Shown here: in pieces, positions 1,645 to 27,025 of the stretch
Layout: every line of letters begins with the position of its first letter
How positions within the stretch are numbered: the first letter of the stretch is position 1
IMG/VR virus record: IMGVR_UViG_3300032335_000777
Coordinates: 32,001 to 96,000 of that record
Direction: 5' to 3' (one strand)
Length of the DNA: 64,000 bases
From: a virus
Lineage: Duplodnaviria; Caudoviricetes
Translations under genes and position numbers: made by a program
Notes under the pieces: model-generated
The model's input: the letters and a program-made list of their open reading frames with translations, nothing else
Told to the model about the DNA's origin: nothing
Databases searched by the model: none

Positions 1645-1668
1645 GTTTTTGTCGTCTTATGTTTTCAG

Positions 1669-1707
1669 AAAATACAAAACCTAGAGACTATTGTGCCCCT
1701 AGGTTTA
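1669..1707 (-). terminator. Probable intrinsic terminator after the 1835-aa cargo gene
   Basis: Minus strand AAACCTAGGGGC-ACAATA-GTCTCTAGGTTT followed by TGTATTTT. Confidence 0.55.
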
Positions 1708-1762
1708 GTTTATTTTCTGTAGTTATGTAAAACTAATCAATATTGAGTTATTTCTCAATACA

Positions 1763-4700: not shown

Positions 4701-7270
4701 TTCAGCTCTTCTTCAGAAAACTTAGTTACGTCCTCTGGATTCTCATACAGATTTCTGTATCTCTCAAGAAGCTCTTTTGCTTTCAATTCAAGAAGCTCAG
4801 CTTGTTCAATAAGAGGACGAACATCACGTTTCACTTGCAATCTTCTGATTGCCTTGAATAAGCTTTGTAGCTGATCTCTCTTAGCTTCTTTTCTATCTGG
4901 TGCAACTTTCTCTTTTGCAAATCTTTCATAAGCTGCATTCAACTTCTTAAGAAGCTCATCAAGCTTTCTGTTGTCTGTTGATTCATCCTTTGTAGGAACA
5001 GGAAGTAAGAAATCTTCTTTCTCATCAATGTCTTGAACATTGACATCACCAATCTTCACACCAGTGAGTCTTGGTAGTTCAATCACCTTACCCTCTTTAC
5101 TCTTCTTACCTCTAGAGTATTCAGCAAGAATGGGAATCATTCTTGTTTGTTTGAAGTCTTTTGCCTGCACACCATAGTTTGCAATCAAGATTTTCTTGTA
5201 TTCATCCATCTGGATGTTCCAAGATTCAATCTTATACCAAGGTACATCAGTGTATTTCTCTTGGTTAAGATTCATAAACTTCCAGTCAAGAATGTCAATC
5301 TTCCCTTCTTTGGTAATTGCCATAAAGTCAACTGTACCAGCTAGATTCTTACCATTGTATATAGCAACTTCTTTAAGGAATCTGGTTCCTTCTGGATATG
5401 ATTCAAGTCTTCTCTCAAGGTTGTCTCTTAATGTTTCATAAAAACTTTGACTACCTATTTGAGAAACATAATTATCGTTTTCTTTATTTTCTGCACGTGC
5501 AGCAGCATCTCTCAAGTATCCGTTCTCATCTACAAATAGAGAGAATGCATATTCAAGATCAGCGTGACCTTTTGTTCCCTTTTCTTTCTTAAGTTCCTTT
5601 ACAGCTGTATCGTATTCATCATCAAGAAGTTCTTGATTCTTTTGACGATTATCGTAGTATGTTTTTACAATTTCTGAAACCCTTCCTACTTCTTTACCAT
5701 CAACTATATATTTCTCTTTCCCTTCTTTTGGTTTCTCAATTCTGTTTGATAGTTCTATAACAGAGTCATACACGTTGTCTTGTTTACTCTTCTGTAGGAA
5801 TGTAGCATCTTGTTCTTCTCCAATCTGATCAGCTGTTCCAATGTCTTTACCAGAGATAATGTCAATAGTAACTTGATCAAATCCAGACTTGATGTAAAGT
5901 AGATCTTTAATCCAATCAAGAATACTTCTCCACCATGACTGAGCAGTTGCTAAATTTTCTCTAGTCTCTGCAATTCCTTCAGACTTGTTAATGATTTTCT
6001 CAACTAGCACTTTTGCAATAGCTTCTTCCTTGAGTTTGATAACATCAGGCTTACCATCCTTCTGATAGAGAGGATCGTTGCCATAAGTCTTAAACACTTG
6101 TGTAAGCATATCATATCCATTAATCTCCTTCATAAGCTTTTGGTAAAGTTTAGGATTGGTTTGTTTGATGATGGACACAGCAAAGTGCATGGCTTCTTCT
6201 GGAAGAGCCTGTGCTTCTTTTCCTTCTACAACAGAGATGAGTTGTTGCATAACTTGTGCAACACCATTAGCATCATACTTGACACCATTGACAACTATCT
6301 CCTTAACAATATTGACATTAACACCCACCTTCTCTAGGAAGTCTCTGATGATTTTTAATGTCTTAGGTGATGCGTTTGATGGTAGAGTTTCTGATTCTGA
6401 TTTTTGTAGAGATGTTCCTTGCTCACTAACAAATTGTCTAAAGCCTTGAACATCATTTTCATTTCCTAGAATGTGGATTTGTTCAGGTTCAAATACTACA
6501 TACAAATCTCTTCTAGTTATACTTTTAATACCCCCAAATTCAGGAGAAAAACTTTTTGAAGATATAATTCCACTATCATATTTATCTTCAATATTTGCTG
6601 ATTGGTAATCACTGAAAGATAAATTAGGTTTAGGATTTATTACATTAAGTAATGCATAATATAAATTACCCCCGTAATTCTTTTTTAAACTATTTTTAGA
6701 TGTTTCTGTCTCATCTTGACTAAAAAAGAAGCCTTCTCTTTTATAAAAATCATCTTTATAATTTTCAGTTTTTTTAAAATACTTTTTATTTTTTTGTGGG
6801 CTACCATGATAAACAACATCCTTCACTTTACTATTAGGAAAGATAGAGTCTAGATATTGAGAATATTGTTCTGGTGTACCAACACTAGCAAGCTCTGGAT
6901 TAGAATTGAATAGTTCCTGCACTCCTGGTTTAACAGCTGTAGGAGTTTTCTGAAGAAACAAATCTCTTTGCTCTTGTTCCATAAGAGCTTCATCACCTTT
7001 GAAGAAATCTAAATCACGCTCAAATGCTTTTTCAGCATCTTGTTGTCTTTTGAATTCCTTGTTGACAGCATCTTCGAGAGGATTGACAATAACTCTAGCC
7101 CCACCAAGACCAGAATACTGTTGTATTCTCGTTATGGCAGATGACCAGAGTTTATTCAGATAGTCAACAATTCCTTTAGCAGCATCTTGTGACATAACTG
7201 CCTGTGGATCAGGCAGCTTTCTATCAATGCTCTTCTGAATTGTTTCTCGAATTTGTATGGGACAAGGCAT
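1763..7270 (-). CDS. Large virion cargo/ejection protein (1835 aa) with ART-like, degenerate zincin and PD-(D/E)xK nuclease domains
   Basis: Lies directly after the vRNAP gene, as in crAss-like phages. Motifs: VVYHGS...GFFFS...YVVFEPEQIHILG (ART-like), LPEEAMHF...EEAIAK (zincin-like), GTVDF...ILDWK...QMDEY (RecB-type nuclease). C-terminal hydrophobic segment VLALAALTFGMAAAA. Confidence 0.75.
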   Translation of the reverse strand: MPCPIQIRETIQKSIDRKLPDPQAVMSQDAAKGIVDYLNKLWSSAITRIQQYSGLGGARVIVNPLEDAVNKEFKRQQDAEKAFERDLDFFKGDEALMEQEQRDLFLQKTPTAVKPGVQELFNSNPELASVGTPEQYSQYLDSIFPNSKVKDVVYHGSPQKNKKYFKKTENYKDDFYKREGFFFSQDETETSKNSLKKNYGGNLYYALLNVINPKPNLSFSDYQSANIEDKYDSGIISSKSFSPEFGGIKSITRRDLYVVFEPEQIHILGNENDVQGFRQFVSEQGTSLQKSESETLPSNASPKTLKIIRDFLEKVGVNVNIVKEIVVNGVKYDANGVAQVMQQLISVVEGKEAQALPEEAMHFAVSIIKQTNPKLYQKLMKEINGYDMLTQVFKTYGNDPLYQKDGKPDVIKLKEEAIAKVLVEKIINKSEGIAETRENLATAQSWWRSILDWIKDLLYIKSGFDQVTIDIISGKDIGTADQIGEEQDATFLQKSKQDNVYDSVIELSNRIEKPKEGKEKYIVDGKEVGRVSEIVKTYYDNRQKNQELLDDEYDTAVKELKKEKGTKGHADLEYAFSLFVDENGYLRDAAARAENKENDNYVSQIGSQSFYETLRDNLERRLESYPEGTRFLKEVAIYNGKNLAGTVDFMAITKEGKIDILDWKFMNLNQEKYTDVPWYKIESWNIQMDEYKKILIANYGVQAKDFKQTRMIPILAEYSRGKKSKEGKVIELPRLTGVKIGDVNVQDIDEKEDFLLPVPTKDESTDNRKLDELLKKLNAAYERFAKEKVAPDRKEAKRDQLQSLFKAIRRLQVKRDVRPLIEQAELLELKAKELLERYRNLYENPEDVTKFSEEELNNFSDEVESVQNAFNSYINIHNLLKDVVDDADLRNSLRDISDVASDYISELTEVNKNFVNDVLAKRENFNDVLSPEKIVKGLAKFFSSTSTLQVKTIQLLFKKANMAFGKATIATQVENAKLDKLRDDYLAWAKSKGISQKEFFSMIKKKDSNELINQFKKEFYTEAKKAARDGDVKWMKDNIDVSQLSEALEKKKNEEIEKVKNKPNRKGTPEQILKDITREISDVERLYSINTDSSKGWFLYDIVKKFPLEKWQTEEWKNLNKPENAPAKAFYDYIVEKNKEYADLGYISKQKERIFLPYVEGSLVEAAIKGQSLNVGERFWRSISIDAGDVGYGQIDPETGKPINTIPRYFTTPFDAVLSEDLFRTMSMYNEAALKYKYVSEIEGQIRAIARVEKNKKTIMTNNLGKVARDPVTGDVIYNPESTEGNYELLDSMIKAIIYGQRYIDNQNFDAALFKIGKWGETINKKLGINVFPENLEGRQVTLNKIVDNLNNSFSIATLGFNLGSSISNGLGGTFQSVINSGKYFTKNDFIAAETQVIINKFSGEDKAKFFKAFEYFQPLTDNYNRDLAKRLSTNIAVEGKTANKISSNFATEEGFQDFLMWMMRSADRTVQGANFLAFLNNSVVIDGKVVNAREYLRSLPEYKGRWSGSSQDRKAFDEKFEEAVKKLVEEKGVMKLATIENNEFVIPGVERMSNSVLEVRRKVQQLSKDAMGNLSEDDVRLINMNILGKSFMVFKNWIPRLVDVRFGGLKYNAASDAYEWGRTRMMMSVLRDNLFTNFDGLLGLITGNDRGAELMRQSFEKRAEKYELETGRKLEMTEEMFMDLFQSNVNAFARDTMFVLALAALTFGMAAAAPDDEEDPIVKNQYNYARRLADKLSDEVSYFYNPTSVLNLVGNGPFPAMSILNNGFKGVKNSFVELYGLGIGDEELVEDTKVIKYLAKTFPFANQMIGYLPMFYPDMAKDLGIRVQSNYGIR

Positions 7271-7272
7271 TT

Positions 7273-10200
7273 TTAACAGGTTTTTCTATACAATACAGCT
7301 TTATCAAGAATCTGTTCTTTGATTTTAGCATCTCCAACTGTTTCTTTTCCAAGATTAGTTTTTCCACTACCTAAGATTCTACCATCTAAAAGTACGAAAT
7401 ATTCGTTATTGTTATAAGTAGAAACTCTCAAAGTCCCATCTTGCAGCTCTTTTCTAATACTCACTTTGTTTTTAGTAGTTTGATCTGTCACCTCTTTACC
7501 ATTATCATAGAACATTTTTCCATCAGGTTGAATAGTGATGCTGAACTGATTCACTTTAATGATTCTTGACTTTTGTTCAACAGGAGCTGGTGTAGCAGCA
7601 ACTTCTTGACCATCTGGATAATAGAAATTTAAAGGATTGTCTGCATTGATTCCAAGATACTCAGAAGCTCTAGATATACCTACATAGAGGAGTGAGTGTT
7701 TCTCTGTGCTCACTTCTTTACCATTCATCATCAATTTTGATGAAGAACCTCTTGGTAAACTGGAAGCATCAAAAAACACATTCTTTACTGTAGACCCTTG
7801 AGATTTGTGAATTGTCACAGCATGTCCAAAGTCAATACCTTTTTCAATGAGCAAATCTTTATCAATATTTTTATGTTGTTCGTTAACATATTTTTCCATC
7901 ACTCCTGATGCAGGATTATAAATGTATGTATCTCCTAAATCAACTATTCGTAATTGCATAGAGATTCCATCTTTTACATCATAATACCTAGCCCAGTCTT
8001 TACCAGATTTAGTTCTAAGTGCAATTTGTTTTGCTTCATGCAACCTGCTCATCATTTTTGAAAGCATTTCATTATTCTTTTGGAAATCTTCTTCTGTAAG
8101 ATTTTCAAAATCAAATGAATCATTTCTAGAAAGTTGTGCATAATTCGTACTTGCAATTTCTTCAACATCGCTAAGTCCTGCATCTTGTAAAGATTTTAAC
8201 TTTTTAGAAGAAGCAACAATTGAATACAACGATCCATCTTTTCGAACATCTCGAATTGTATATCGAATACTGTTTGCTATGTTTTGTTTTTCAATTTGTT
8301 TACTTGAGTAGCCTAGATAGCCAACAACAATATCTCCTTTTTGAAGATCTCCATATCTACCCAAAGACTCTCTGATTTTAAGGTTGTAATCTTGAACTCC
8401 TTTATTAGTGTAGGATATTAGAACAGTCTCTTCAGGATTCTTTTCGAAAACTTCAGCAAGCTTTGAATTGAATTTTGATATAGGTAAGTATTCAAGTTGA
8501 TCAGTAGATGGTACTATTGGTATTTGATCATTAACATTATTTCTAACATTAGTTAACATATTCAATATTGCATCACTACTAGTTCTCTTAACCTCTGTCA
8601 ATACAACTTGGCCAGTATCTGTAAAAGCTTTTGATACAAGTTTCTTCTCTGGGTTTCTTACATCCACCTCTGGGATCTGCATTACATCACCCATGAATAT
8701 AACTTTGATATTATTTTTAGGAGCCACTTGTACTAAAGCTTCATAATCTTTAGAATTTAGCATTGACACCTCATCCAATACAATTATGTTGTTACTTAAC
8801 CCAAGTCTTCTAGCCAACTTTGCATTAATTACTGGCGTTGATTCTCCTGTTGTAGGATCATATTTAGTTGATATAGCAGAAGCTACAGTCATTGGAAGTT
8901 GTTTATTTCCAGTTTTAACTGTAGCAAAAGCTAGCTCAGCAGTTGCTGCATGGGTTGGTGCAAGGAAATTAAATTTATAATTCCTTAAATACTTTTGTAA
9001 GTATCCAATTATAGATGTCTTACCTGTACCTGCTGCACCTTGCAAAGTGATAAATTCAGAACCTGGATCTGTAGAAAAATCAATAAGTCTTTCTAATGCC
9101 TGTCTTTGACCTTCTGTAAGTTGGAAGTCAGTATCTATAGTGGTTCCCTTGTAGGTGAATTTAGGAGTTGTAGGAACATTTTTAATAGATTCATTGAACT
9201 CTGAAAGAACTCTATTCCAAACCTTATCATTAGGATCTTGAATACCAGGAGTGTTTGACTTTCCTTCATCAAAAGCTTTTGATCTATCTGCACCAATTAA
9301 ATAAGCAGTGTGATAATCTTTTGCATTTACAATAGAATCATATTTTTCAGGAGCATATTCTTTTGCTTTTTCTGCAAAATAATACCAAAGTAAATTTTTA
9401 AATCCTTTATAAGGTTTTGACAATTGCTCTTTTGTAATTCCTTTATTTTCAACAACATCAACTTCTTCTTCCACTACAGGTTCAATACCAGTAGATACTA
9501 ACTTTTCAAAGTTTTCATTAAATACAATGTTAGATGGAATAGGACCAGCATTAGCAAACATTGCTGCCATTTCTTGTCCTGAATAACCATTCAAATTAGT
9601 TTCAGAATAATCAGAAACTAAGAACTCTTTATCAGGATTATTTTTAGCATAGTCATACAATGTTTTGATTTCTGTAGTTATTTCTTCAGGAGTGCTAGAT
9701 CTTTCTACATCGTAAAACTTCTTAGTTACAATAGCATAAGACTGACCTTGAAGACCTCTAGACTGACCTTGTATAGCACCAAATTTATCTTTAGCTAATT
9801 TTGCAGCACCTGCACCATGTGTAGGAGCTTGTCCTTGAGAACCACCTTCATTTGATCCAAATACAAATATTTGATTAGGTTTCAAACTTGTAATCTTTCC
9901 AGAGTATGTTTCAGTACCAGTGGATGGTTCAATAATAGTTGGTTGCTCAATAACTGTTGGAGCAACAACTTTCTCTCCAGCAAACATTGCAATGATAGCG
10001 TTGTCTGTCAACTCTTTCTCCACTTTGAAAGTGTTGTTGTCAAACACAGAAGGTGTCATTAACTTTTTATACTCAGTTACAATTCTTGAGCTTCCATATA
10101 AGTTAACCATCTTGAACACACTAAACTCGTCAAGTGACTTACCTGATTTTCTTTGAATGGTTAATGGAACACCATCTTCACTTTTCACTTTCTTGTAGCC

Positions 10201-13200
10201 AACCATTTCATTTTTGGAAAGAATTCCATCATTTGAAAGTTTGGTGAAGTCTTTCACTAACATAGTTTTTCCACTTGTGATGTCAACCACAATTGTTTTT
10301 GGTCCACTAGCAGTCATAGAACTTACGTATTGATATCTTCTCATCTTCACAAAATCTTTATTAGCTTGATTCATGAATGAGTATTTGTTATTGAGAGATA
10401 TCAACTTTCCACTTCCTGGAGTTATTCCATTTGTGATGGATGAAAGGAATGTGTCTGTCTTACCATAATCAATTTGTAATCCAAGCCCTGAATCTACAGT
10501 TCTGTATCTAGGACTAATCTCAGGGACAATGGTACTGTCAGAGAAATTGTTTCTGTAGAATAATCCTTCCTTGTTGAATGCCTCAAGTTCTGAAGATGGT
10601 TGTAAGACATTTATTACAGGAGCAATGATTGCAGCTCTGTCTTCAACAGGAACAATTGGTGCAATTGATAAATTGGTATCCATTGTTCCTTGTAGAATAG
10701 AAAGTTTTACCAAGTCATTGTAGAACTCTGGCTCTAGTTCTTTCAATTCTCTCATCATTCCTATATGCATATCTACATCAACAGCATCTGTAGGTTTCAC
10801 CTTTAAGGAAACTGTTACAGGACCATTCTCTTGTAGTGAACTTACAGGAACTAGATTGGATAAAAGGTTTGATGTAGGATATTTCTTCTTAAGCTTAAGT
10901 AGTCTAGAAGCTACACTATTTTCTCCTGTGAATAAGTTTTTACTATCATCAGGGAATATGGATGTAGATCTTGTTTGAATTAAGAAATCTAAGAATGAAG
11001 ACTTAAGCTTCTTAGCCACATAATTGAAATCATCTTCTGACATGTATTCATTATCATAGAATGGCTCCATGACATCATCAATGTATTGATCAATGCCTTG
11101 TGAATCAAGTTTCATTATAGCACCAAGAGATTTCAATTCTTCTCGAAGTAGTCTAACTTGTTCACCAATGAATGTGTCATTCATAACTTTTTCAATAGAA
11201 GAGACAATGTTAGTTTCTATGGCAGATGTTGTTCTTGTCATCTTTCTTTTGAAACCTTCATAGTTTGTCACTCTAGTGGTGTCATAGTTATATGCTTGAG
11301 TGAATTTGAAATTCAATTGAGCAAGCTTAGCAAGCTTTAGGAACTCATTGAATATAGCAACCTGCTTAGCATTAAACTCAGCAGAAGCCTTAGTGCCTTC
11401 TGGTCTGTTTGCATTCTCTCTAATTAAGTTTAACAGATTCTGCTTTGATTTCTCAAAATCGATCTTTCCATCAACGTCTTTTTCAAACTCATTAGACAAG
11501 TCATAAGATTCATCTTCACTACTTGGGAATTTAGAATAAGTGTATTCAAGATTATCCTTACCAAATAACGATCTACTCTTAATCTTATCAATATTTTTTA
11601 AGTGCTCTATAATGATTGGTTGGTTCAAGAAGTATGCTGTAAGTTCACCAGCACCAATTCTTTCCATCAACATTGCAGTTCCAACAACTAAGTCACTTTG
11701 AATAAGCTTCAAGATGTATGGATCTTTAGCAACGTCCACAAATGATGTAGCATATCCAGATAGTCTATCAGAGATGAATTCATCTTTTCCATCAGCAGTT
11801 TTTAGACCACCTAGAGAGATCATCTCTTTACCATCAACAGTTGTAGTGTTGTGAGGAATTGCTAAGCTGAGATCGCCTAAGAATCCTCTGTCATAATCAG
11901 AAAGTTTGTCTAGTAATCTAGAATCAAAATACAATCCAACCTTCTGACCAATTGCGTGACCAGTGATGTTTACAGCTGCAATACCCACCCACTTCTTACC
12001 CATCAAGAATGCTTGTCTCAAAGAAGTCATGAAGCTTCTAGAAACTAGTTTATTCTTAACGTCAGCTTCTTTGTTGTTTGTGGCATCATCAAGAATGTCA
12101 GCCACCTTTGATAATCCTGCATCACTTACTGGTGACATCAATCTTTCAAAGTTTCCAGGAAGTGTAACTAGGTCTTGTAAGATTTCATAATATCTGTTCT
12201 CTAAAGACTTCTTGTACATTTTCTGTACATACGCATTCTTTAGATTGCTATCAAACTTTTCTTTAGATAGATCTTCAAACTTGGTGGCAAGTCTACCCAT
12301 TTGATCACCAACATAATCAGCAGGAGTCATTCCTTTAGAAAGAGCTTGCTCTTCCATCTCATTAATTATTTCTCTGTGATTGATGTAGAAATTATAAAGA
12401 TCTTCACCAAGTAGAGTCTCAAGTGATTCAGCAGTTACGTTAGATGGATCTTCGATGGTTTCAGCAGCTTCAAATATCTCAAGCACCTTATCTCTAAATT
12501 CATCATATCTAGAAATACTATCTAGTTGCTTTTGAATACGATCTTCGTACACCTTAGTATAGAATTCCATTGTAGCTTCTTTGCTACCTTTGTATTCAAC
12601 AGCTTTGATATTTCCATTCACGTCAACATACACTGATTTAAGGTACATGTTGAGTTTATCAATATCAAAGTCAGATCCTGCTTTGGCTACAATCTCAGAA
12701 GGTACAACAACTGTAGATCCCATAGATGAATCAAGGAATCCTGCAATCTTGAACACCTCTGTAGAAGATGTTGCCTGGTGAGGAATACGAGCTCCTACAC
12801 CAAACAAAATCTTTTGATTCTCTGGCTTATTCAAATATTCAAAAATAGCCTTATCATCAGGGAACTTAGTCTTATCAGTGAAATACTTTTTCCAGAAGTT
12901 TGGAATCATTACTTCCATGTATCTCTTTCCATCCTCATTCTCATAGAACTTAAGAGCATCACTAGAAAGTACAACACTACTCTTATCTTGTTCAGATAGA
13001 GCATCATATTGCTTTCTAGTAATTTCTACATATCCATCTTTTGTTTTTCTTAATATCTTTCTTCCCTCTTTTGCATTCTCCCAAAGTGTAGCTGGAACCT
13101 GAACGTGAGGTTTACCATTCATCTGTGGAGAGATGAGAGACTTATTAATCATTGATATAAGAACACTTCTAATCTGTTCGTATGCAGAAGATGCTTCAAA

Positions 13201-16200
13201 TGGCATATTGAACTCACCATTCTCATTAAGACGTATTGTGTCAATTACATTTTGTGACACTTGTCTTCTCAACAACTCATACTCAAGTTCTCTAGATATT
13301 TTTACGTTGTCTACAACTACGTAATTACCATTCAGATCTTCTAGACCAAGTTTGTTCAAAAACTCTTCGTAAGCATTCTGATGCATCTCCTTGAAGATTT
13401 TAATCTTCTCTTCAGCAAGAGCTGTTGCACCTTCCATACCTTCAACTTCCTTACCATTCTCGAACATATCCATTGTGTCGTTCTTGGTAAGTTGAGATAC
13501 TCTAGTTTGAAGTTTACCTTCTTCGTAAGAGTTTTCCACTTGGATACCATAAGTTTTCCAAGCTACGTTCTCAATAGTTTCTTCTCCAAACTTTGCATTG
13601 TTGTAATCACCGTTTCCATTGTACAAGTTATGCCCTTGACGAGCACCTTCTTTTCTTGAAGACTTGTAAGAAACATATCCCACCTTCTCATTCAACATCT
13701 GTACATACAAGTTCTCAAGGTTTGTACCCTCTACCATCTTGTATGTAATAGGCATTTGAGAGAACTTGTCAAGGATGCCTTCTATTCTATTTAGTCCAGC
13801 TTTAGAACCAGATACAATAGGCTTCAGCACCTCTGTAACAAATGGAGGTTGTGGTTTAGTAATTAGTTTTTGATCATGCTTTTTAAGTGCCTCACTCTTG
13901 TATTCATACAATCCTTTAGCAGACATCTTCTGTCTAGCATAAGCTTGATTCCATTGGAACCAAGGTTCAGCAAGATCATTTGACCATTCACCATTCTTAA
14001 GCTTCACTTCTCTATAAGCACCATCAATGATCACTGAGAAACCATCAGCTTCATCATATCCTCCAAACTTCTTAATAAACTTAGAGAATGGGTTTACATC
14101 ATTTAGTGTAGCAGTTTTAACGTATGACTTAAATGTATAACGAAACTTATCATCTGCTTCTAGAGATAGGTCTTCTGTTACATCATTGAATCTATTATTT
14201 AGAAACTTATTGAATTCTGGATGATCAATAGTTACTCTTCTAGGAGATAGCCAAGACTTGATACGCTTGGTTTCATCTAGTTTACCATTTTTAATTTTGA
14301 ATTGATAAGGATCGCCAAATATAAATTTGTGCATTTCAATGTTTGCAATCATGTAGTTCATGTTTACAAACGAAAGCACCTGCATCATCTCGTCTTCAGA
14401 TAATGAATTTCTATTCAATTCATTAGTTTGAGCAAACTTGCTATCTAAAGTTTCATATCTATAACCCTCTGAATTTTTTGTCACTTCACCAGAATTAATC
14501 AAATCTTTCAGTGTTGATTGATTTAGACTAGTGATTGTATTTCTAATAGAATTTTCTAGAGCTTCATCACTAACAAGAGCTAGAATGTCCTTTCTAGATT
14601 TACCTTCTTTAATAGCTTTATGTATCTCTTCAACAAGTGGTGCATCAAGAATATCTTTGAAGAATCTAAGTTCTTTAGCGTTATCTTTTGCAGAAGCAAG
14701 TTTTGATCTTGTTTCCCAATCAAGGGCCAAATCAACCTCATCTTCTAAGTATCCCTTGAAGATGCTCTTGATTTTTGTAAATGCTCTTTCAGCATCGTTG
14801 TTGAATAGTTCATACTCAACCATTGATCCTAGATTCAGCATTCTTTCTGTAGAAGAGTCTGCTGGTACTAAGATGTAATAGTTACCATTTATGTTTTGAT
14901 TGATTTCAACAGTGAATCTGTCACCCTTTGTCAAAGATGATATGGATAGTCCTCTATCAGTAGTCTCATCTTTCAATCCATCAATTACACCAATCTGTAA
15001 AACTTTACCTTCAATCTTATTACCATTATCATCATAGAACATTCCACCCTTCTTAATCAACAAGCTGTTCTTTGAGAATGCATCTTTTAGCTCTGGTCTT
15101 GCTTCAAATAGTTCATCAAGAGTCATTGCCTCATTGAACTCTGCTTCGAATACAGAAGGAGCGTTACTATCTGTGAAGTTACTTATACGCTTATTCTCTA
15201 TGTTAAATCTAGTTGTATCCTGGTCAGGATTAACTAGTCTAACATACATATCTGCAAGAGTTCTCACATGAGAGTCCACTCCTGAGAACTTGTCTCCAGA
15301 TAATGAAGCATATCCATTTGGACCCATTTCATATATCTTGGTTACAGCATTATCAAACCTCTTATTAAGTTTCTCATCATTATTTATCTTTTCAATAAAG
15401 CTTAATGGGAACTCAATGCCTATATTCTTCAGATAGTTTTGTACAGCCTGTGGCTTAAGAAGACCTTCTTTAGTTGGATATTCTTTTTGGTCTTTATTAA
15501 TTGCGTAAAGTGTTATTCCTTTGTCACCTTTCTTTTTGAAAATAAATGATGTTTCTGATTTAGAAAGTTGTTTTATATTTTGGAACCACTCGTTTCTAGT
15601 TTTATTCAAAGCAGATGTTCTATCACCAGGAGCAGTGAATGATTCAACACCACCATCTCCCTCTCTTTGAATTGCTATTTCAACAAATGGATTACTCTTA
15701 GACATTGATTGAATAAACTGAATATAGAATCTCCAGTCAGCTTCTTCAAACTTGCTATAATCAAGAATTCCATTCTTAGCATCGCCACCAAGTCTATTGA
15801 AGATTCTGTAATAGTTACCATCTTCTTTTACCAGATCAATAATTTTTTGATCAACTTTTGCCAAGCTTGTATTAGAAAGCTTGTTCAATAGGGTTGCGAA
15901 CGTCTTATTAAAATTGTTTAGAAGACTCAATCCCTTCACTGACTTAGATCTTAGCAGCTTAGGAGCAGTACCTTCTGGATAAACAGTTTCAGCTGCTGGG
16001 TTAGAAGCCAATACAAACTTCACAGAGAACCTCATGTTCTTTTTGAAGTCTATTTCAAAGGCTTCAGCAGCATAGAGTCTATCAGTTTGGCTAGCATCAT
16101 TTGTACTAACCACACCTTCAGTGTCAATATTTATACCCATTGTTCTAATTAGATCTTTTGATCTCAAGAACAAATCTTTGAAAGCCTCTTCTCCAAGAAG

Positions 16201-19200
16201 TTCTATGTTGTCAGTATATTCACTTCTCAAGAAATTGTACACTTCTTTTCCAGTGACAGATCTTGGATTGAATAGTTTTTCCAATCCATCAGTGTTGTTT
16301 CTATTGAAGATGTATTCAGACATTGTAATAGTCATGTCCTGAACAATTGCCCAAGCCTCATCTTCAGATAATACACTACCATCTGCTATACTTATCTTTC
16401 TGTATTCAGGAGCTGCTGATTTAGCTTCTTCTGAAACAACATAATCTTTGAACTTACCTGTATCAATAGACTTGAACAAATCATCTTTGAGAGATGGCTT
16501 TGCAACAAAGCTTTTGAAGAAGTCAACAATAGCCTTGAAGAAGTTTCTTATCTTCTCAGACAATGTTCTAGCTGGCAGCTTACCAAGTCTATAGTCAGCA
16601 AAGTCATCAGCAATACGTTCTTTAGCTTGTCTATCTGTAGCATTACTGTATGCAACAAGTTGACCACTTTCTCTATCAAGGAAACTACCACGCTTAGATT
16701 TAAACTCATCTAGAATAGCTTGTCTCTCGCCTTCTGTCAAGAATGCTTTCCATACACCTTCAAAGACTTCGTGATATTCTGTACCACTCAAACCACGTCT
16801 GAAGAACTTAGCAACTCCGCCTTCAAATACACCCCATGCCTTAGAACCATCATGTAGTGTGATGATGTTCTCAAGGATTTCAAATGGTATGTTAGGAACA
16901 TTCTTTGCATGCCAAGCTTTGAATGCTTCAATGTCTCTATCACTTATTCTTCCACCACGTTCACCAGTACGAACTTTTCTAGTTTCCTCATCTTTAACAC
17001 CAGACTTAAATCCTGATAGTCCTTTCTTTTCTTTAGGTGCTTCTTTTTCAACAGGTGCAGGAGCTTCAGTAGGTGCAGATTCTTCAATAGTTGGTTCAGT
17101 AGTTTCAGAAACAGGAGCCTCTGGAGCAACAGGAGCTGGAGCTGGTGCTTCATTAATTGCAGCTTCCACTTTACTTGCTGCTTCACCAATGTAGAACACT
17201 GTTGCTGCATCAAAATCATTTAGTCCTTCTGTTGCTGTAGGATATTTCTTTCTAGCAACTTCAATCTTTTTAGGATTGTCAGCAAACTTCTGTATTGTCT
17301 CTGCATTAGTTTCTGGAGAGATTGCATCAATTTCAATTTCACCACTTGGTAGAATGTTAGCTTTGAAACTAAACTCACCACCAAACATGGTTACAGTGTT
17401 TACAGTGCCATCGTTAAGAGTGTATGGTCCCACTGTAACAGGAACGTCAGATTCAATTATATCTGATGGTCTTACTGGAGCACCTGAGCTAGAAGGGCTT
17501 GGGGGATCTTGTTCTTTCTCACTTGGTACATATCCTTCATCACCTGTCTCAAAGTTAATCAGCGTAGCATACTTACCTGCAAATGCGTAAGGTTGTGCTT
17601 CTGTAGGATTTGCAATTGTTACAAATGGAATCTCATCTGTAGTTCTGTCTTTACCAGAGGCAAGATAGGATTGATAGTTTGGCCATTCTCTTTCTTGTAA
17701 CTTACCATCTTCAAGGAAGTATTCAAAGAATGGACTTTCTAGTCTCAATGTTTTAGCATTGGCAGAATGATACATCTCAGAAAGCTGAGCAACAATCTCT
17801 TGTTCTTTAGAAGCGATTTCTGAGAACTTATATGATTGTGATCCAAGCTTAAGAGTGAGGTTTTCTGTGTCAAACCAAAACTGATTATCTTTTGCGTTTT
17901 CTGTAATCTTCTTATAGTTGAGAACATTCTTCAAGAACAATAATTTGTTCTTGTCAAACTGAGGAGCTTTACCTTCGCTAGCATCCTTCTCAAGCTTTGT
18001 TATAATAGACTTAATAAGTTCGTATGCTGTAGCAGCTTTCTTCTTACCAAGCTTATTATTGTTTAGATATTGTAATAGGTCACCATTTTGAATGTAGACA
18101 AGTCCTTTTTTAGAATTTACAATCTTACCATTGTATGAAATAGTATCAGTGGTAACAACATTTATAAGTCCTGGAATAGTAGCTATTGCAGTTTCATCAA
18201 CTAAAGAACTAGTTACAGGATTCTTTTTATATACACCACCCTCTTTTTTTGTATTAGCAAAACCTGCTGAAACTCTAAATTCAAGAGTTGGAGGAACTGT
18301 AGAAGGCTTCATAAGTTCTACACGTCTGTTTCTCCAAATCTTTGCAAACTTTACAAAGTCATCCTTCTCATTCGTTCTATATCTATCATTTCCTCTACTA
18401 TCTGTAATAGATGTGCTAGGCATTGTTTGGAATATAACCTTTCCAAGATCAGTAGGTTGACCCACTTCACCAATGCGCTTACCATCCTGATCTACAAAGT
18501 ATCTCTTCTTACCATCAATCTCAACAAATACCATTGCTACGAATCCATTGTCTTCATTCATGACTCTGGATTCAAAAGCAGCTTTATCAGCATCCACTTG
18601 CTCTTGTGTCATTTTGTATGACAAAGCTGTAATGCCAGATAGGCCAAGAGATTCTTCTTGGCTGTATGTAAATACAATTGCTCTAAGCTTATTTCTATTC
18701 TTAAATTTTCTGATTTTATTTAAGAAAATTCTTGATCTTGTTACATGAGGCTCTGACTTAGAAGTGTCAGCAAATTCCTCAGACTCTGTAATACTAGAAT
18801 CAAAGAAATCTATAGCACTTTTCATTCTACCAGTTTCGCCTGTATCAACTCTTTCTCCAACATCTTCTGGGAGAGTGCCTACAGGGAATGGTTCGTTGTC
18901 AGAAATATCTTCTTGTTGTTTATCAAGAGAGCTACTAGATTCTTTAATCTTATCAGCTATTTCTTTTGCCTTAGCTTGTTTTTCAAGCAGTTCTTTAGTA
19001 AGTCTTTTAAATCTATTTATAACAGCTGCACTGATCTTTTTATCACCAAGAGAGTTAATGTATTCAAGTTTGTTTACGCCTTCTCCTGGCTTCTCATATA
19101 TGTCTCTGAAGGCAGGATATTGAAGTACATCATCAATAGATTGATTCAATGCATCTTCAAGTTCCTGAGAAGTGTTATCCTCTTCAGTGATGTTGTATTT

Positions 19201-21750
19201 ATTAAATTGTTCAGGAGAGAAGAACGTAGCAGTACCATCAGGTAGTTGCACTTCAAACTCTCCACCAAGTGTACTGGATAATACAGTGAACTTTGGTGCA
19301 AGAACGATCTTTCCTTTTTCTAAAGTGATGGGTTCAGCAAGAGAATAGGTTTTGCCCAATTCTAAAGTTTTCTGAACTTTCTTTCTACCTTCTTTTTGAG
19401 AAACTTCTACATCTTGGATTTCTTCCTCTGGACGTTCGTAGTTTAATGGATCATTCTTAATACTATCGTATTCTCCAATAAACATCTTTCTTCTTAGAGA
19501 TAGCTCAATAACATCGTCTAGAGTGCCTTTGAGTTCATCCTTAACATCAGATGTCACACTCATTGAGTTAATTGTTTCTAGAGCTTCTTTGGTAGCTTCA
19601 GCGTTTGGTTTACCTGTCTCAATAATGTCTTGGAGAATTGCTTGTGTATTAATACCAGCAGTGGTCAACTTAACATTCAGTTCAGGAATCCTTACATCAT
19701 AGTTTGCAATTTTAGTACTTGCATAAGCAAGCATGTCAATTGCAAAAGGAGAATACTTTCTTTTTTGTTCACCATCAACTTCTATAGTCTCACCAGCATA
19801 TCTAATGTTCAAAGCCTGATACATATCACTGAGAGCCTTTGCAGAGTTCTCAATGCTAGTGATTCTTTTCTGGAAGGTTTCAACAGTATCGTTGATGTTT
19901 GCCATTCCTTGTTCCTTAAGTTCAGTGAGACCTTGTTCAGTCAATCCACCTTTCTTAAGTTCATCCAGATCTTCCATCACCATATCAAATCTTCCGTATT
20001 TGATACGTGGTGCTAGATAGTTATACATCTGGTCACTGTACAAGTCACGCTCTTCTAATCTATCACCATTGATGATTGCGTCTCTATGTTGTTGTTGTAA
20101 TACAACGCCTCTGTTAGCAGCAGCAAGTCTATCTTCAAATGCTTCTTTGAACGATGGTGCATTATTCATCATGTTCAAAAAGATCTCTGTATTCTTTGCC
20201 AGAGCTTTTCTTTCTCGATAGGTACCTCTTGCTTGCATCAAGCCACCAGTGATTCCTCCAAGAATACCACTCTCAATACCTTCTTTAGATACAAGAGCAC
20301 CTACGCCTTCTCCAAATTTATCTTTACCAAACAATCCATACAAGAAGCCATCTACAAATAGATCAGCTTCTCCACCTTCTTGAGCCTTCTTAAAATAGTT
20401 TTGTGTACCTACTTGCAATCCATATTGTAAAATCTCTTGAGCTGATTCTTTTGGATCAAACACATAAACCCCACTTCTTTTTACACCTTGATAAAGTTTA
20501 CCAAATCTAGTTTTTGGTCCAGCTTTGGCTACATACTTTCCTGTCTCATCAATTACAAAATCATCAACTCTTCCTAGCAAACTGTTTGCAGCTTGTCTAC
20601 TTGCTGAATAGCTTGATCCCATCAAGTATGGAAGTTGTGAATATTCTGTAATAGACAACAATGCCATGTTGCCAAAGAAAGCAGTTTTACCAACTCTCTC
20701 AGCTTCAACATTTATATTTTTTAAGTCTTCACCAATTGGAGCAAATCCATTTTTTTTAGTGTACTCTTCAATTAAATTTTCTCTAAATTCTTTAGATGTA
20801 TGCAAAGCTTCGAACGATGCTTCACCAGCAGATGAATTAATTGCTACAGCAGTTCTTCTGAAATTATCACCAAACTTTGCAAACTGTGTAGTTTGTTTAG
20901 CCAGGTTAGCCAAAGCAGAAGATCTTGCAGACAAATCTGCTATAGATGAAATCTGACTTTCTAATATAGATGCAGCCTCTACATTTTTAGCAGCTGAGAA
21001 TGCTCTTGATGTGTTTCTTAGAAGTGGTGTAAAAAGTTTAAATCCTTGTGAAGCTTCAGCAATAGTTGCAGCTCTAGCAGCTGCGCTACCTATTGTTGAA
21101 CCAAGTCTTAAAAGTCCAGCATTTGCAATGTTACCAGTAACCATTGCCCCCACTGCAAATCCAGCATTCTTGATTAACTTATCAAAAAGAAAGTTGGTTG
21201 TAAACCAGTTATCTGTAGAATACCACTCAGAATTTTTCTCAGCAGCTGTATAATAGTTTGGAAGAAACTCATTATCAACTTTAGTATTCCACTTATCCAA
21301 TCCACGCATTACTTCATTGTCAAATACATCAGACATTTTCTGTGTAAATAACAATGACTTACCAACACCATATAGCATACCAAATCCACCAGCTACTGTA
21401 GTGGCTGCAAGGTTTGCTCCTTTCAATACACCATTGGCAGCTTGCTTATACCAAGCTTGCCCTTGTGCAGCAAAGTCTTCGTAGTCTCCAATTGTAGGAT
21501 TGAAAGTTTTGTATCTCTTATTTGCTTCAAGTTCTGCATTGCTAACAAACAATCCCTTTTGAGAAAACTTTTGTCCAGCAGCTGCTAGTTCAGCAAATAC
21601 ATCTTCCTTCTGAGAAAGATCTGAAACTCCACCACCTTGTCCAGAACTAAAGTTCATTGGAGGATCCTTTGGTGCAACTAGTGGAATATTAGAAGATTTG
21701 TAACCTGTTTCTTTAATGATGGGTTGTAAGTTTCTATCAAAATCAGCCAT
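7273..21750 (-). CDS. Virion-packaged RNA polymerase polyprotein (4825 aa), crAss-like, with C-terminal macro-like and SF1B helicase domains
   Basis: GARIPHQ (about 12775-12795) and KAGSDFDIDKL (DxDxD at 12655-12672) are double-psi-barrel RNAP motifs. HEVFE zincin-like motif at 16759-16773. Helicase motifs GAAGTGKT, DEVSM, GDVMQ, HKSQGST and YVGISRA. Confidence 0.9.
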   Translation of the reverse strand: MADFDRNLQPIIKETGYKSSNIPLVAPKDPPMNFSSGQGGGVSDLSQKEDVFAELAAAGQKFSQKGLFVSNAELEANKRYKTFNPTIGDYEDFAAQGQAWYKQAANGVLKGANLAATTVAGGFGMLYGVGKSLLFTQKMSDVFDNEVMRGLDKWNTKVDNEFLPNYYTAAEKNSEWYSTDNWFTTNFLFDKLIKNAGFAVGAMVTGNIANAGLLRLGSTIGSAAARAATIAEASQGFKLFTPLLRNTSRAFSAAKNVEAASILESQISSIADLSARSSALANLAKQTTQFAKFGDNFRRTAVAINSSAGEASFEALHTSKEFRENLIEEYTKKNGFAPIGEDLKNINVEAERVGKTAFFGNMALLSITEYSQLPYLMGSSYSASRQAANSLLGRVDDFVIDETGKYVAKAGPKTRFGKLYQGVKRSGVYVFDPKESAQEILQYGLQVGTQNYFKKAQEGGEADLFVDGFLYGLFGKDKFGEGVGALVSKEGIESGILGGITGGLMQARGTYRERKALAKNTEIFLNMMNNAPSFKEAFEDRLAAANRGVVLQQQHRDAIINGDRLEERDLYSDQMYNYLAPRIKYGRFDMVMEDLDELKKGGLTEQGLTELKEQGMANINDTVETFQKRITSIENSAKALSDMYQALNIRYAGETIEVDGEQKRKYSPFAIDMLAYASTKIANYDVRIPELNVKLTTAGINTQAILQDIIETGKPNAEATKEALETINSMSVTSDVKDELKGTLDDVIELSLRRKMFIGEYDSIKNDPLNYERPEEEIQDVEVSQKEGRKKVQKTLELGKTYSLAEPITLEKGKIVLAPKFTVLSSTLGGEFEVQLPDGTATFFSPEQFNKYNITEEDNTSQELEDALNQSIDDVLQYPAFRDIYEKPGEGVNKLEYINSLGDKKISAAVINRFKRLTKELLEKQAKAKEIADKIKESSSSLDKQQEDISDNEPFPVGTLPEDVGERVDTGETGRMKSAIDFFDSSITESEEFADTSKSEPHVTRSRIFLNKIRKFKNRNKLRAIVFTYSQEESLGLSGITALSYKMTQEQVDADKAAFESRVMNEDNGFVAMVFVEIDGKKRYFVDQDGKRIGEVGQPTDLGKVIFQTMPSTSITDSRGNDRYRTNEKDDFVKFAKIWRNRRVELMKPSTVPPTLEFRVSAGFANTKKEGGVYKKNPVTSSLVDETAIATIPGLINVVTTDTISYNGKIVNSKKGLVYIQNGDLLQYLNNNKLGKKKAATAYELIKSIITKLEKDASEGKAPQFDKNKLLFLKNVLNYKKITENAKDNQFWFDTENLTLKLGSQSYKFSEIASKEQEIVAQLSEMYHSANAKTLRLESPFFEYFLEDGKLQEREWPNYQSYLASGKDRTTDEIPFVTIANPTEAQPYAFAGKYATLINFETGDEGYVPSEKEQDPPSPSSSGAPVRPSDIIESDVPVTVGPYTLNDGTVNTVTMFGGEFSFKANILPSGEIEIDAISPETNAETIQKFADNPKKIEVARKKYPTATEGLNDFDAATVFYIGEAASKVEAAINEAPAPAPVAPEAPVSETTEPTIEESAPTEAPAPVEKEAPKEKKGLSGFKSGVKDEETRKVRTGERGGRISDRDIEAFKAWHAKNVPNIPFEILENIITLHDGSKAWGVFEGGVAKFFRRGLSGTEYHEVFEGVWKAFLTEGERQAILDEFKSKRGSFLDRESGQLVAYSNATDRQAKERIADDFADYRLGKLPARTLSEKIRNFFKAIVDFFKSFVAKPSLKDDLFKSIDTGKFKDYVVSEEAKSAAPEYRKISIADGSVLSEDEAWAIVQDMTITMSEYIFNRNNTDGLEKLFNPRSVTGKEVYNFLRSEYTDNIELLGEEAFKDLFLRSKDLIRTMGINIDTEGVVSTNDASQTDRLYAAEAFEIDFKKNMRFSVKFVLASNPAAETVYPEGTAPKLLRSKSVKGLSLLNNFNKTFATLLNKLSNTSLAKVDQKIIDLVKEDGNYYRIFNRLGGDAKNGILDYSKFEEADWRFYIQFIQSMSKSNPFVEIAIQREGDGGVESFTAPGDRTSALNKTRNEWFQNIKQLSKSETSFIFKKKGDKGITLYAINKDQKEYPTKEGLLKPQAVQNYLKNIGIEFPLSFIEKINNDEKLNKRFDNAVTKIYEMGPNGYASLSGDKFSGVDSHVRTLADMYVRLVNPDQDTTRFNIENKRISNFTDSNAPSVFEAEFNEAMTLDELFEARPELKDAFSKNSLLIKKGGMFYDDNGNKIEGKVLQIGVIDGLKDETTDRGLSISSLTKGDRFTVEINQNINGNYYILVPADSSTERMLNLGSMVEYELFNNDAERAFTKIKSIFKGYLEDEVDLALDWETRSKLASAKDNAKELRFFKDILDAPLVEEIHKAIKEGKSRKDILALVSDEALENSIRNTITSLNQSTLKDLINSGEVTKNSEGYRYETLDSKFAQTNELNRNSLSEDEMMQVLSFVNMNYMIANIEMHKFIFGDPYQFKIKNGKLDETKRIKSWLSPRRVTIDHPEFNKFLNNRFNDVTEDLSLEADDKFRYTFKSYVKTATLNDVNPFSKFIKKFGGYDEADGFSVIIDGAYREVKLKNGEWSNDLAEPWFQWNQAYARQKMSAKGLYEYKSEALKKHDQKLITKPQPPFVTEVLKPIVSGSKAGLNRIEGILDKFSQMPITYKMVEGTNLENLYVQMLNEKVGYVSYKSSRKEGARQGHNLYNGNGDYNNAKFGEETIENVAWKTYGIQVENSYEEGKLQTRVSQLTKNDTMDMFENGKEVEGMEGATALAEEKIKIFKEMHQNAYEEFLNKLGLEDLNGNYVVVDNVKISRELEYELLRRQVSQNVIDTIRLNENGEFNMPFEASSAYEQIRSVLISMINKSLISPQMNGKPHVQVPATLWENAKEGRKILRKTKDGYVEITRKQYDALSEQDKSSVVLSSDALKFYENEDGKRYMEVMIPNFWKKYFTDKTKFPDDKAIFEYLNKPENQKILFGVGARIPHQATSSTEVFKIAGFLDSSMGSTVVVPSEIVAKAGSDFDIDKLNMYLKSVYVDVNGNIKAVEYKGSKEATMEFYTKVYEDRIQKQLDSISRYDEFRDKVLEIFEAAETIEDPSNVTAESLETLLGEDLYNFYINHREIINEMEEQALSKGMTPADYVGDQMGRLATKFEDLSKEKFDSNLKNAYVQKMYKKSLENRYYEILQDLVTLPGNFERLMSPVSDAGLSKVADILDDATNNKEADVKNKLVSRSFMTSLRQAFLMGKKWVGIAAVNITGHAIGQKVGLYFDSRLLDKLSDYDRGFLGDLSLAIPHNTTTVDGKEMISLGGLKTADGKDEFISDRLSGYATSFVDVAKDPYILKLIQSDLVVGTAMLMERIGAGELTAYFLNQPIIIEHLKNIDKIKSRSLFGKDNLEYTYSKFPSSEDESYDLSNEFEKDVDGKIDFEKSKQNLLNLIRENANRPEGTKASAEFNAKQVAIFNEFLKLAKLAQLNFKFTQAYNYDTTRVTNYEGFKRKMTRTTSAIETNIVSSIEKVMNDTFIGEQVRLLREELKSLGAIMKLDSQGIDQYIDDVMEPFYDNEYMSEDDFNYVAKKLKSSFLDFLIQTRSTSIFPDDSKNLFTGENSVASRLLKLKKKYPTSNLLSNLVPVSSLQENGPVTVSLKVKPTDAVDVDMHIGMMRELKELEPEFYNDLVKLSILQGTMDTNLSIAPIVPVEDRAAIIAPVINVLQPSSELEAFNKEGLFYRNNFSDSTIVPEISPRYRTVDSGLGLQIDYGKTDTFLSSITNGITPGSGKLISLNNKYSFMNQANKDFVKMRRYQYVSSMTASGPKTIVVDITSGKTMLVKDFTKLSNDGILSKNEMVGYKKVKSEDGVPLTIQRKSGKSLDEFSVFKMVNLYGSSRIVTEYKKLMTPSVFDNNTFKVEKELTDNAIIAMFAGEKVVAPTVIEQPTIIEPSTGTETYSGKITSLKPNQIFVFGSNEGGSQGQAPTHGAGAAKLAKDKFGAIQGQSRGLQGQSYAIVTKKFYDVERSSTPEEITTEIKTLYDYAKNNPDKEFLVSDYSETNLNGYSGQEMAAMFANAGPIPSNIVFNENFEKLVSTGIEPVVEEEVDVVENKGITKEQLSKPYKGFKNLLWYYFAEKAKEYAPEKYDSIVNAKDYHTAYLIGADRSKAFDEGKSNTPGIQDPNDKVWNRVLSEFNESIKNVPTTPKFTYKGTTIDTDFQLTEGQRQALERLIDFSTDPGSEFITLQGAAGTGKTSIIGYLQKYLRNYKFNFLAPTHAATAELAFATVKTGNKQLPMTVASAISTKYDPTTGESTPVINAKLARRLGLSNNIIVLDEVSMLNSKDYEALVQVAPKNNIKVIFMGDVMQIPEVDVRNPEKKLVSKAFTDTGQVVLTEVKRTSSDAILNMLTNVRNNVNDQIPIVPSTDQLEYLPISKFNSKLAEVFEKNPEETVLISYTNKGVQDYNLKIRESLGRYGDLQKGDIVVGYLGYSSKQIEKQNIANSIRYTIRDVRKDGSLYSIVASSKKLKSLQDAGLSDVEEIASTNYAQLSRNDSFDFENLTEEDFQKNNEMLSKMMSRLHEAKQIALRTKSGKDWARYYDVKDGISMQLRIVDLGDTYIYNPASGVMEKYVNEQHKNIDKDLLIEKGIDFGHAVTIHKSQGSTVKNVFFDASSLPRGSSSKLMMNGKEVSTEKHSLLYVGISRASEYLGINADNPLNFYYPDGQEVAATPAPVEQKSRIIKVNQFSITIQPDGKMFYDNGKEVTDQTTKNKVSIRKELQDGTLRVSTYNNNEYFVLLDGRILGSGKTNLGKETVGDAKIKEQILDKAVLYRKTC

Positions 21751-24320: not shown

Positions 24321-24336
24321 GTTATTATTGTTTTAT

Positions 24337-24344
24337 CAAATTTA
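24337..24344 (-). promoter_or_regulatory. Bacteroidota sigma70 -7 element (TAAATTTG)
   Basis: Matches TAnnTTTG in an intergenic gap, 16 nt upstream of the ATG at 24320. Confidence 0.55.
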
Positions 24345-24369
24345 GTAGTAATATATTATTCTATGCACA

Positions 24370-27024: not shown

Positions 27025-27025
27025 A

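Follow-up and report, generated by a model that had tools for sequence, protein, structure and literature searches.

Among the described systems closest to the protein studied here is gp66 of the crAss-like Cellulophaga phage phi14:2, a virion RNA polymerase (RNAP) of 2,180 residues with its catalytic motif at 1361-DFDID-1365; crAss-like virion RNAPs are recognised by a DFDxD motif with Ile or Val at position 4 (bioRxiv 10.1101/2020.03.07.982082). In vitro, gp66 works well on single-stranded (ss) or denatured DNA templates and poorly on double-stranded ones, the crAss virion polymerase polyprotein may be cleaved, and the related QDE-1 of Neurospora needs the helicase QDE-3 together with RPA (bioRxiv 10.1101/2020.03.07.982082). 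Presence in the virion, ejection and early transcription have been demonstrated for phi14:2 and crAss001 only (bioRxiv 10.1101/2020.03.07.982082; PMC10172136). Polyvalent virion proteins are giant and multidomain; their genes lie among those for the virion, they are delivered together with the DNA, and their domain sets change fast. They include the N4-type virion RNAPs, and N4 vRNAP needs a C-terminal region for encapsidation (PMC5512222). Here we describe a 4,825-amino-acid (aa) protein encoded in a 64,000-nucleotide (nt) stretch of viral DNA (hereafter the window; bases 32001-96000 of the 109,983-bp IMG/VR virus record IMGVR_UViG_3300032335_000777, completeness estimate 95%), in which a polymerase of the gp66 type is joined in frame to a Dda-like superfamily 1B (SF1B) helicase.

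The text of the literature that we searched, including that of the main crAss papers, contains no explicit description of a helicase fused to a virion RNAP. The reading that we rank first, with a probability of about 0.6, is that of a polyvalent injected cargo protein whose accessory, co-injected helicase would play a facultative role on incoming DNA, the helicase being an optional cassette exchanged by recombination and not a part of the polymerase mechanism.

The polymerase part was recognised by no profile library, and phmmer with the whole protein against PDB sequences recovered the helicase chain only, not 6VR4 (phi14:2 gp66); aa 2400-3560 were therefore folded with AlphaFold2, using as input a 43-row alignment built from IMG/VR loci (alignment A2). 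The best Foldseek match of this model (predicted local distance difference test score (pLDDT) 85.6, pTM 0.84) was 6VR4_A (E 4.7e-29, TMq 0.65), with QDE-1 entries next. In the 43 homologues of A2, G626, D628, F629, D630, D632 and K633 are invariant and span the catalytic motif, and the DFDID of the window protein has Ile at position 4, as expected of a crAss-like virion RNAP. On its modelled fold, the polymerase is a gp66-type two-barrel single-chain virion RNAP, in agreement with a preliminary description of this DNA that had pointed to an RNAP with DFDID. With gp66 it shares the Ile-containing motif, a fold match over ~1,200 aligned columns and a position in the late structural/cargo block of a crAss-like genome. 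However, the aligned core is only 17% identical; gp66 has no helicase, and the giant protein exceeds it by an N-terminal module of 1,520 aa and, at the C-terminus, by the A1S_2505 domain, the SF1B helicase and the tail.

The helicase was detected by profiles: Pfam found AAA_30 (E 1.8e-20, aa 4210-4406), AAA_19, PIF1 and UvrD_C_2 (aa 4642-4700) on aa 4210-4700, and PHROG 325 ('Dda-like helicase') matched aa 4196-4709 with an E-value of 9.2e-65. Motifs I, Ia, II, III, IV, V and VI are all present, and in a 40-row alignment of fused and stand-alone helicase relatives (alignment A3) the catalytic residues are invariant or nearly so (G-GKT, H4267/A4269, D4326/E4327, G4354/D4355/Q4358, R4389, T4646/H4648/K4649/Q4651/G4652, Y4689/R4694). 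Across the helicase, the AlphaFold2 model made of aa 3941-4825 reaches pLDDT >90; its fold is that of two RecA-like cores with SF1B accessory domains, and Foldseek placed it closest to DSH9 (2e-19), T4 Dda (3e-18) and RecD2 (1e-16), followed by Pif1. Motifs and modelled fold agree on a motif-complete SF1B (Dda/RecD2-like) helicase with predicted unwinding activity; the preliminary description had proposed this assignment from a list of motifs, every one of which was located by script. The helicase shares the full motif set and the fold with T4 Dda (3UPU), DSH9 (8JX6) and RecD2 (3GPL), and the phage setting with the stand-alone Dda-like genes of other Crassvirales. In contrast to T4 Dda, DSH9 and RecD2, which are free proteins of 430-570 aa with early expression, it lies inside a cargo protein that would be expressed late; it also has an extra helical lead-in of ~100 aa and is 18% identical to Dda by structural alignment.

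The ORF runs without an internal stop, and the join between polymerase and helicase is spanned by independent assemblies: P0002 (JGI, 5,015 aa) aligns unbroken over aa 3929-4825 with 92% identity, and P0003 (ENA) and P0219 (JGI) are 99% identical across helicase and tail, apart from an 80-aa linker indel. The same join occurs in GenBank MT774375 (phage cr50_1) and in the IMG/VR genomes G001, G004 and G006. Because independent JGI and ENA assemblies carry it at such identity, a misassembly at the junction, which was looked for, is excluded, and the in-frame fusion stands. Its extent had to be corrected: the range 7273-16800 first proposed belongs to the same 4,825-aa ORF but is the 3' two thirds only. 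The linker indel corresponds to an 80-aa helical lead-in (aa 4117-4195; 9166-9402, minus strand), absent from P0003 and P0219 and present in P0002, and thus varies between near-identical strains.

We had expected from the preliminary description a fusion that is not standard, but more than 100 metagenomic protein clusters contain it, as does a reference genome, cr50_1 (Crassvirales, Suoliviridae, Cohcovirus hiberniae). In cr50_1, the same block encodes QOR58058.1, a 4,774-aa protein annotated 'DNA helicase', which shares the polymerase core (30% identity) and a C-terminal A1S-like segment with SF1 helicase (31% over 798 aligned positions, aa 8-765 of an 886-aa query). The two phages are nevertheless highly divergent (portal ~25% identical), cr50_1 coming from the human gut and the window phage belonging to an unclassified lineage. 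When the cr50_1 cassette was used as query against the phage collection, a match covering 80% or more of the query came from cr50_1 alone, the other Crassvirales matches being annotated stand-alone helicases.

Relatives were collected without bias towards the helicase by searching with the polymerase core (aa 2440-3100), and counts were made on the 120 nearest protein clusters, 28 of which carry the helicase. Among the 48 clusters with at least 80% core identity, the helicase was found in 8, the A1S_2505 domain in 11 and the 108-aa C-terminal tail in 47. A search with the C-terminal part recovered 146 giant proteins, the majority bearing helicase Pfam domains. The boundaries of the cassette are sharp: the BLAST alignment of P0048 (84% identical over aa 1-4094) jumps straight to aa 4718-4825, and P0050, P0072, P0076, P0087 and P0114 show the same pattern, skipping exactly aa 4095-4717 and resuming with the tail; the bodies of these six cassette-minus relatives are 76-90% identical. 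P0004 keeps the helicase and lacks the A1S_2505 domain, P0040, P0041 and P0042 carry the two cassettes in reversed order, and in P0043 the helicase lies near the N-terminus. On a FastTree phylogeny of the polymerase core (121 rows), helicase presence changes at least 14 times, 13 of these changes being forced by well-supported branches. The site is used by two types of SF1 cassette that share ~27% identity and are interleaved on this tree, and the sisters P0009 and P0172 (branch length ~0.02) carry different types. These two sisters differ by a very recent cassette swap.

At the level of genomes, a single-protein query found no related IMG/VR loci, but an alignment of relatives of the giant protein (alignment A1) did, and it yielded 23 near-complete IMG/VR genomes encoding a homologue. 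PF13604 and PHROG 325 each detected a real helicase in 3 of the 23, always inside the giant frame; in the other 20, these two profiles found no Dda-like helicase, giving weak, mostly P-loop-only matches in ORFs of ~220 aa. In G004, the record begins with a 1,411-aa frame that includes the helicase, and the giant gene runs off the opposite end; we read this frame as the C-terminal part of its giant gene. With the exact absence of the cassette from relatives whose bodies are 84-89% identical, repeated changes on the tree and its absence from most surveyed genomes, the helicase behaves as a sporadic passenger among homologues, an outcome that the preliminary description had itself named as one that would refute its proposal.

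The helicase also occurs outside the giant frame. On long contigs, the stand-alone helicases most similar to that of the window (38-40% identity, ~520 aa) are encoded in crAss-like genomes of 96-98 kb, four of which were examined (three with terminal repeats); they lie among small genes, on the strand opposite to the polymerase gene and ~17 kb away from it. Three of these four genomes (G024, G026, G027) each encode one more Dda-like helicase, as part of an open frame (1,109-1,810 aa). In G024, it forms the end of a 1,800-aa ORF with DUF7831 (L087 191-5593, plus strand), is 41% identical to the window helicase and lies directly 3' of a 4,508-aa polymerase gene; the gene that follows this ORF (1,670 aa) is weakly similar to the 1,835-aa neighbour of the giant gene in the window (E 2e-4). 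Because the G024 helicase and DUF7831 are on their own ORF, the effector array can be a separate protein of the cargo block. The 1,800-aa ORF and the polymerase gene overlap by 7 nt, which could be the trace of a split former fusion, or a recoding site. The idea that fused and stand-alone helicases complement each other was considered and rejected, some genomes having both and most of the clade neither.

The domain preceding the helicase belongs to the A1S_2505 family (NCBIfam NF049995, E 7e-27, 93.8 bits against a curated cut-off of 45; PHROG 2072) and carries the signature FVFGSN...HGAGAA; the region has no Pfam match and was modelled with low confidence. Since it occurs independently of the helicase in close relatives, it is a separate optional cassette. 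The 108-aa tail, in contrast, is always at the extreme C-terminus, whichever cassettes precede it. It is modelled as a small alpha/beta unit (pLDDT ~75-90) that matches no known Pfam family and gave no usable match in the ESM Atlas. The tail may be a packaging or anchoring signal, and by analogy its location beyond every cassette is reminiscent of the C-terminal region on which N4 vRNAP encapsidation depends. In the variable region, close relatives without a helicase (P0129-P0144 and others) frequently have PF02151, and in one case PF09397, which we take to be a UVR domain and an FtsK-gamma domain, respectively.

Altogether, the giant protein is a large multidomain protein encoded among virion genes, with a domain set that changes between close relatives, as in polyvalent virion proteins. 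With the described members of that class it shares the combination of a polymerase module and a changing effector set, and helicase modules occur there too; the described polymerases are however T7-like (N4 type) and not of the two-barrel crAss type, and the described helicases are SWI2/SNF2 proteins with methylases, or UvrD-like in conjugative elements, and not Dda-like SF1B (PMC5512222). In the scenario that we favour, the protein would be made late from the structural block, then packed into capsids and ejected together with the DNA, like gp66 of phi14:2 and the cargo proteins of crAss001. Being packed and ejected in this way, the helicase, still tethered or cleaved off, would be present before any phage gene expression and could act as an ATP-driven 5'-3' ssDNA translocase on the incoming genome. 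A likely facultative benefit would be the opening of DNA or the removal of host proteins bound to it; this could assist first transcription, early replication or recombination, or help the genome to evade defence.

Several points weigh against this scenario. Virion packaging in this lineage is read from homology and gene position. Neither a MuF nor a zincin-like protease domain was detected in the giant protein by Pfam or PHROG, a difference from polyvalent virion proteins at the level of these profiles, and proteolytic processing is thus unsupported. The absence counts rest on predicted proteins, some from short contigs, although most close relatives are complete, since the conserved tail sits at the very end of the protein. 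Finally, two unrelated SF1 helicases have repeatedly been captured at one and the same site, which speaks for a specific benefit of having a helicase paired with the polymerase or cargo, and a generic 'accessory' label leaves this unexplained.

Frequent turnover could have another meaning, namely that the injected helicase is a counter-defence effector, which displaces restriction, CRISPR or nucleoid proteins or occupies DNA ends and is replaced in an arms race. In relatives, the variable region holds NADAR/YbiA-type, AlkB-type, DUF7831, DnaJ and intein domains, so that the helicase shares its array with predicted anti-defence domains (NADAR/YbiA-type, AlkB-type, SLOG-like or A1S_2505), and the very frequent gain, loss and swapping are typical of conflict genes. 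Phage fusions of SLOG with superfamily 1 helicases have been proposed as defence-sensing modules (PMC9503650), and polyvalent proteins have been interpreted along the same lines (PMC5512222). The parallel is weakened by the A1S_2505 domain, whose status as a SLOG domain finds no Pfam match and a model of low confidence, and which occurs independently of the helicase. We regard a counter-defence role as possible, if doubtful.

The repeated, independent capture of two unrelated helicase types, within the polymerase gene or beside it, can also be read as selection for coupling: a pre-packaged SF1B helicase would open duplex DNA for crAss-type virion RNAPs, and phages lacking the cassette would use a host or another phage factor instead, as QDE-1 does with QDE-3 and RPA. 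The window polymerase has the two-barrel single-chain form of QDE-1, a protein that is marked by ssDNA preference and helicase dependence, but QDE-3 is a separate RecQ-type (superfamily 2) protein of a eukaryotic silencing pathway and the parallel is functional only. Help with template opening by the helicase is possible; as a general account of its capture, we hold this idea to be tentative and rather improbable.

A stricter form of the same idea, put forward in the preliminary description, is a self-contained transcription-unwinding machine, injected as one unit, in which the helicase tethered in cis melts duplex DNA into the ss template. It draws on the preference of gp66 for ss or denatured DNA and the dependence of QDE-1 on its helicase (bioRxiv 10.1101/2020.03.07.982082), on the capture of both SF1 types at the same place in the protein family, and on the retention of all catalytic helicase motifs. 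However, relatives with 84-89% identical bodies have no helicase, and since this is also true of 20 of the 23 related genomes, the polymerase works without an SF1B helicase. The variable position and order of the cassettes, together with the separate protein in G024, make a fixed geometry between polymerase and helicase unlikely. In addition, cargo proteins are thought to be partly unfolded as they cross the tail (PMC10172136), and cleavage of the polyprotein is possible (bioRxiv 10.1101/2020.03.07.982082). Because most relatives lack the helicase, its position varies and split forms exist, a machine that is obligatory and of fixed geometry is ruled out as a general design; we consider the machine coupled in cis, as first proposed, unlikely.

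Another possibility is that a copy of the phage's own Dda-like replication or recombination helicase of the early module was moved to the cargo block, which would allow the opening of origins or recombination to begin ahead of early gene expression. The nearest stand-alone relatives do belong to the early/replication module in complete crAss-like genomes, a module in which reference Crassvirales genomes encode a stand-alone SF1/Dda-like helicase, and the fused copy is the only SF1/Dda-like helicase in the genome of the window. Yet a stand-alone helicase and one in the cargo block coexist in G024, G026 and G027, so that neither simply substitutes for the other and relocation of a replication helicase does not by itself account for the cargo helicase; as most relatives of the clade have neither form, replication does not depend on it. 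We consider this origin quite improbable. An artefact, be it a misassembly or the read-through of two separate genes, is hardly credible given the unbroken frame and the recurrence of the join in JGI and ENA assemblies, MT774375, G001, G004 and G006.

Accessory cargo, the reading preferred here, is in keeping with the layout of the protein and its gene block (Table 1). The Pfam/PHROG scan gave no domain match outside the helicase and A1S_2505 regions. The N-terminal 1,520 aa match no Pfam domain or known family; judged by position, this module is probably the counterpart of a partner cargo protein that is encoded separately in other crAss-like phages. BLAST alignments of relatives are interrupted at aa ~1549-1556, and the limits of the polymerase body were set where conserved A1 columns stop (near aa 3920) and by the offset of DFDID relative to gp66. 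A strongly conserved stretch right after the Pro/Ala-rich linker contains an invariant Y-H-E-x-x-E (aa 1659-1664; 16759-16776, minus strand), which resembles the zincin HExxH with Glu replacing the second His; Pfam has no match on aa 1576-1800.

Table 1. Features of the giant gene and of the block that contains it (nucleotide positions in the window)
Feature	Position	Strand	Residues and remarks
Giant ORF (P0001)	7273-21750	-	4,825 aa; unbroken; stop codon at 7273-7275
N-terminal module	17191-21750	-	aa 1-1520; conserved among relatives (A1)
Pro/Ala/Glu-rich linker	17026-17190	-	aa ~1521-1575; read from sequence; A1 without consensus here
gp66-like virion RNAP body	9991-17025	-	aa ~1576-3920; limits approximate
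Folded polymerase core	11071-14553	-	aa 2400-3560; AlphaFold2 model
Catalytic DFDID	12658-12672	-	aa 3027-3031; located by script
A1S_2505-family N-terminal domain	9508-9870	-	aa 3961-4081
Helicase cassette	7600-9468	-	aa 4095-4717; bounds set by relatives without cassette; ~100-aa helical lead-in plus helicase
SF1B (Dda-like) helicase core	7603-9165	-	aa 4196-4716; profiles, model, Foldseek
Helicase motif LTEGQ	9106-9120	-	
Walker A GAAGTGKT	9016-9039	-	aa 4238-4245; near-invariant in A3
Helicase motif APTHAA	8944-8961	-	
Walker B / motif II DEVSM	8761-8775	-	aa 4326-4330; D, E, S invariant in A3
Helicase motif GDVMQIPEV	8665-8691	-	
Helicase motif LTEVKR	8584-8601	-	
Helicase motif HAVTIHKSQGST	7789-7824	-	
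Helicase motif LYVGISRA	7666-7689	-	
Conserved C-terminal tail	7276-7599	-	aa 4718-4825; 108 aa
Downstream neighbour gene	1763-7270	-	1,835 aa
Three large upstream genes, same block	21762-30742	-	852, 884 and 1,238 aa; the 1,238-aa one matches tail protein
1,782-aa virion protein, then tail protein		-	between major capsid gene and large family-less genes
Major capsid protein	45085-46635	-	upstream of giant ORF
Portal	48033-50624	-	upstream of giant ORF
Large terminase	50627-52648	-	upstream of giant ORF

The giant gene shares its strand with the large terminase, portal and major capsid genes, which places it in the late structural/cargo block. The 1,835-aa neighbour and the 852- and 884-aa neighbours (21762-27024, minus strand) have no Pfam or PHROG family match and are presumably additional cargo proteins. 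The portal matches chiefly Crassvirales and other crAss-like phage records at ~25% identity, and megablast with the nucleotide sequence of the giant gene found no match in the phage collection; the genome is therefore that of a distant, uncultured crAss-like phage of an unclassified lineage.

These results bear on the question of how crAss-type virion polymerases reach a ss template when the genome has just been injected as a duplex. A helicase delivered alongside is an obvious candidate for helping with template access, but it cannot be the general answer because most relatives do without one. The natural plus/minus pairs, with 84-89% identical bodies that carry or lack the cassette, and the sister proteins with different helicase types are ready controls for the contribution of an injected helicase. 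Finally, the C-terminal region is a hot spot for the swapping of cargo domains ahead of a fixed tail, which may help to understand and engineer phage protein delivery.

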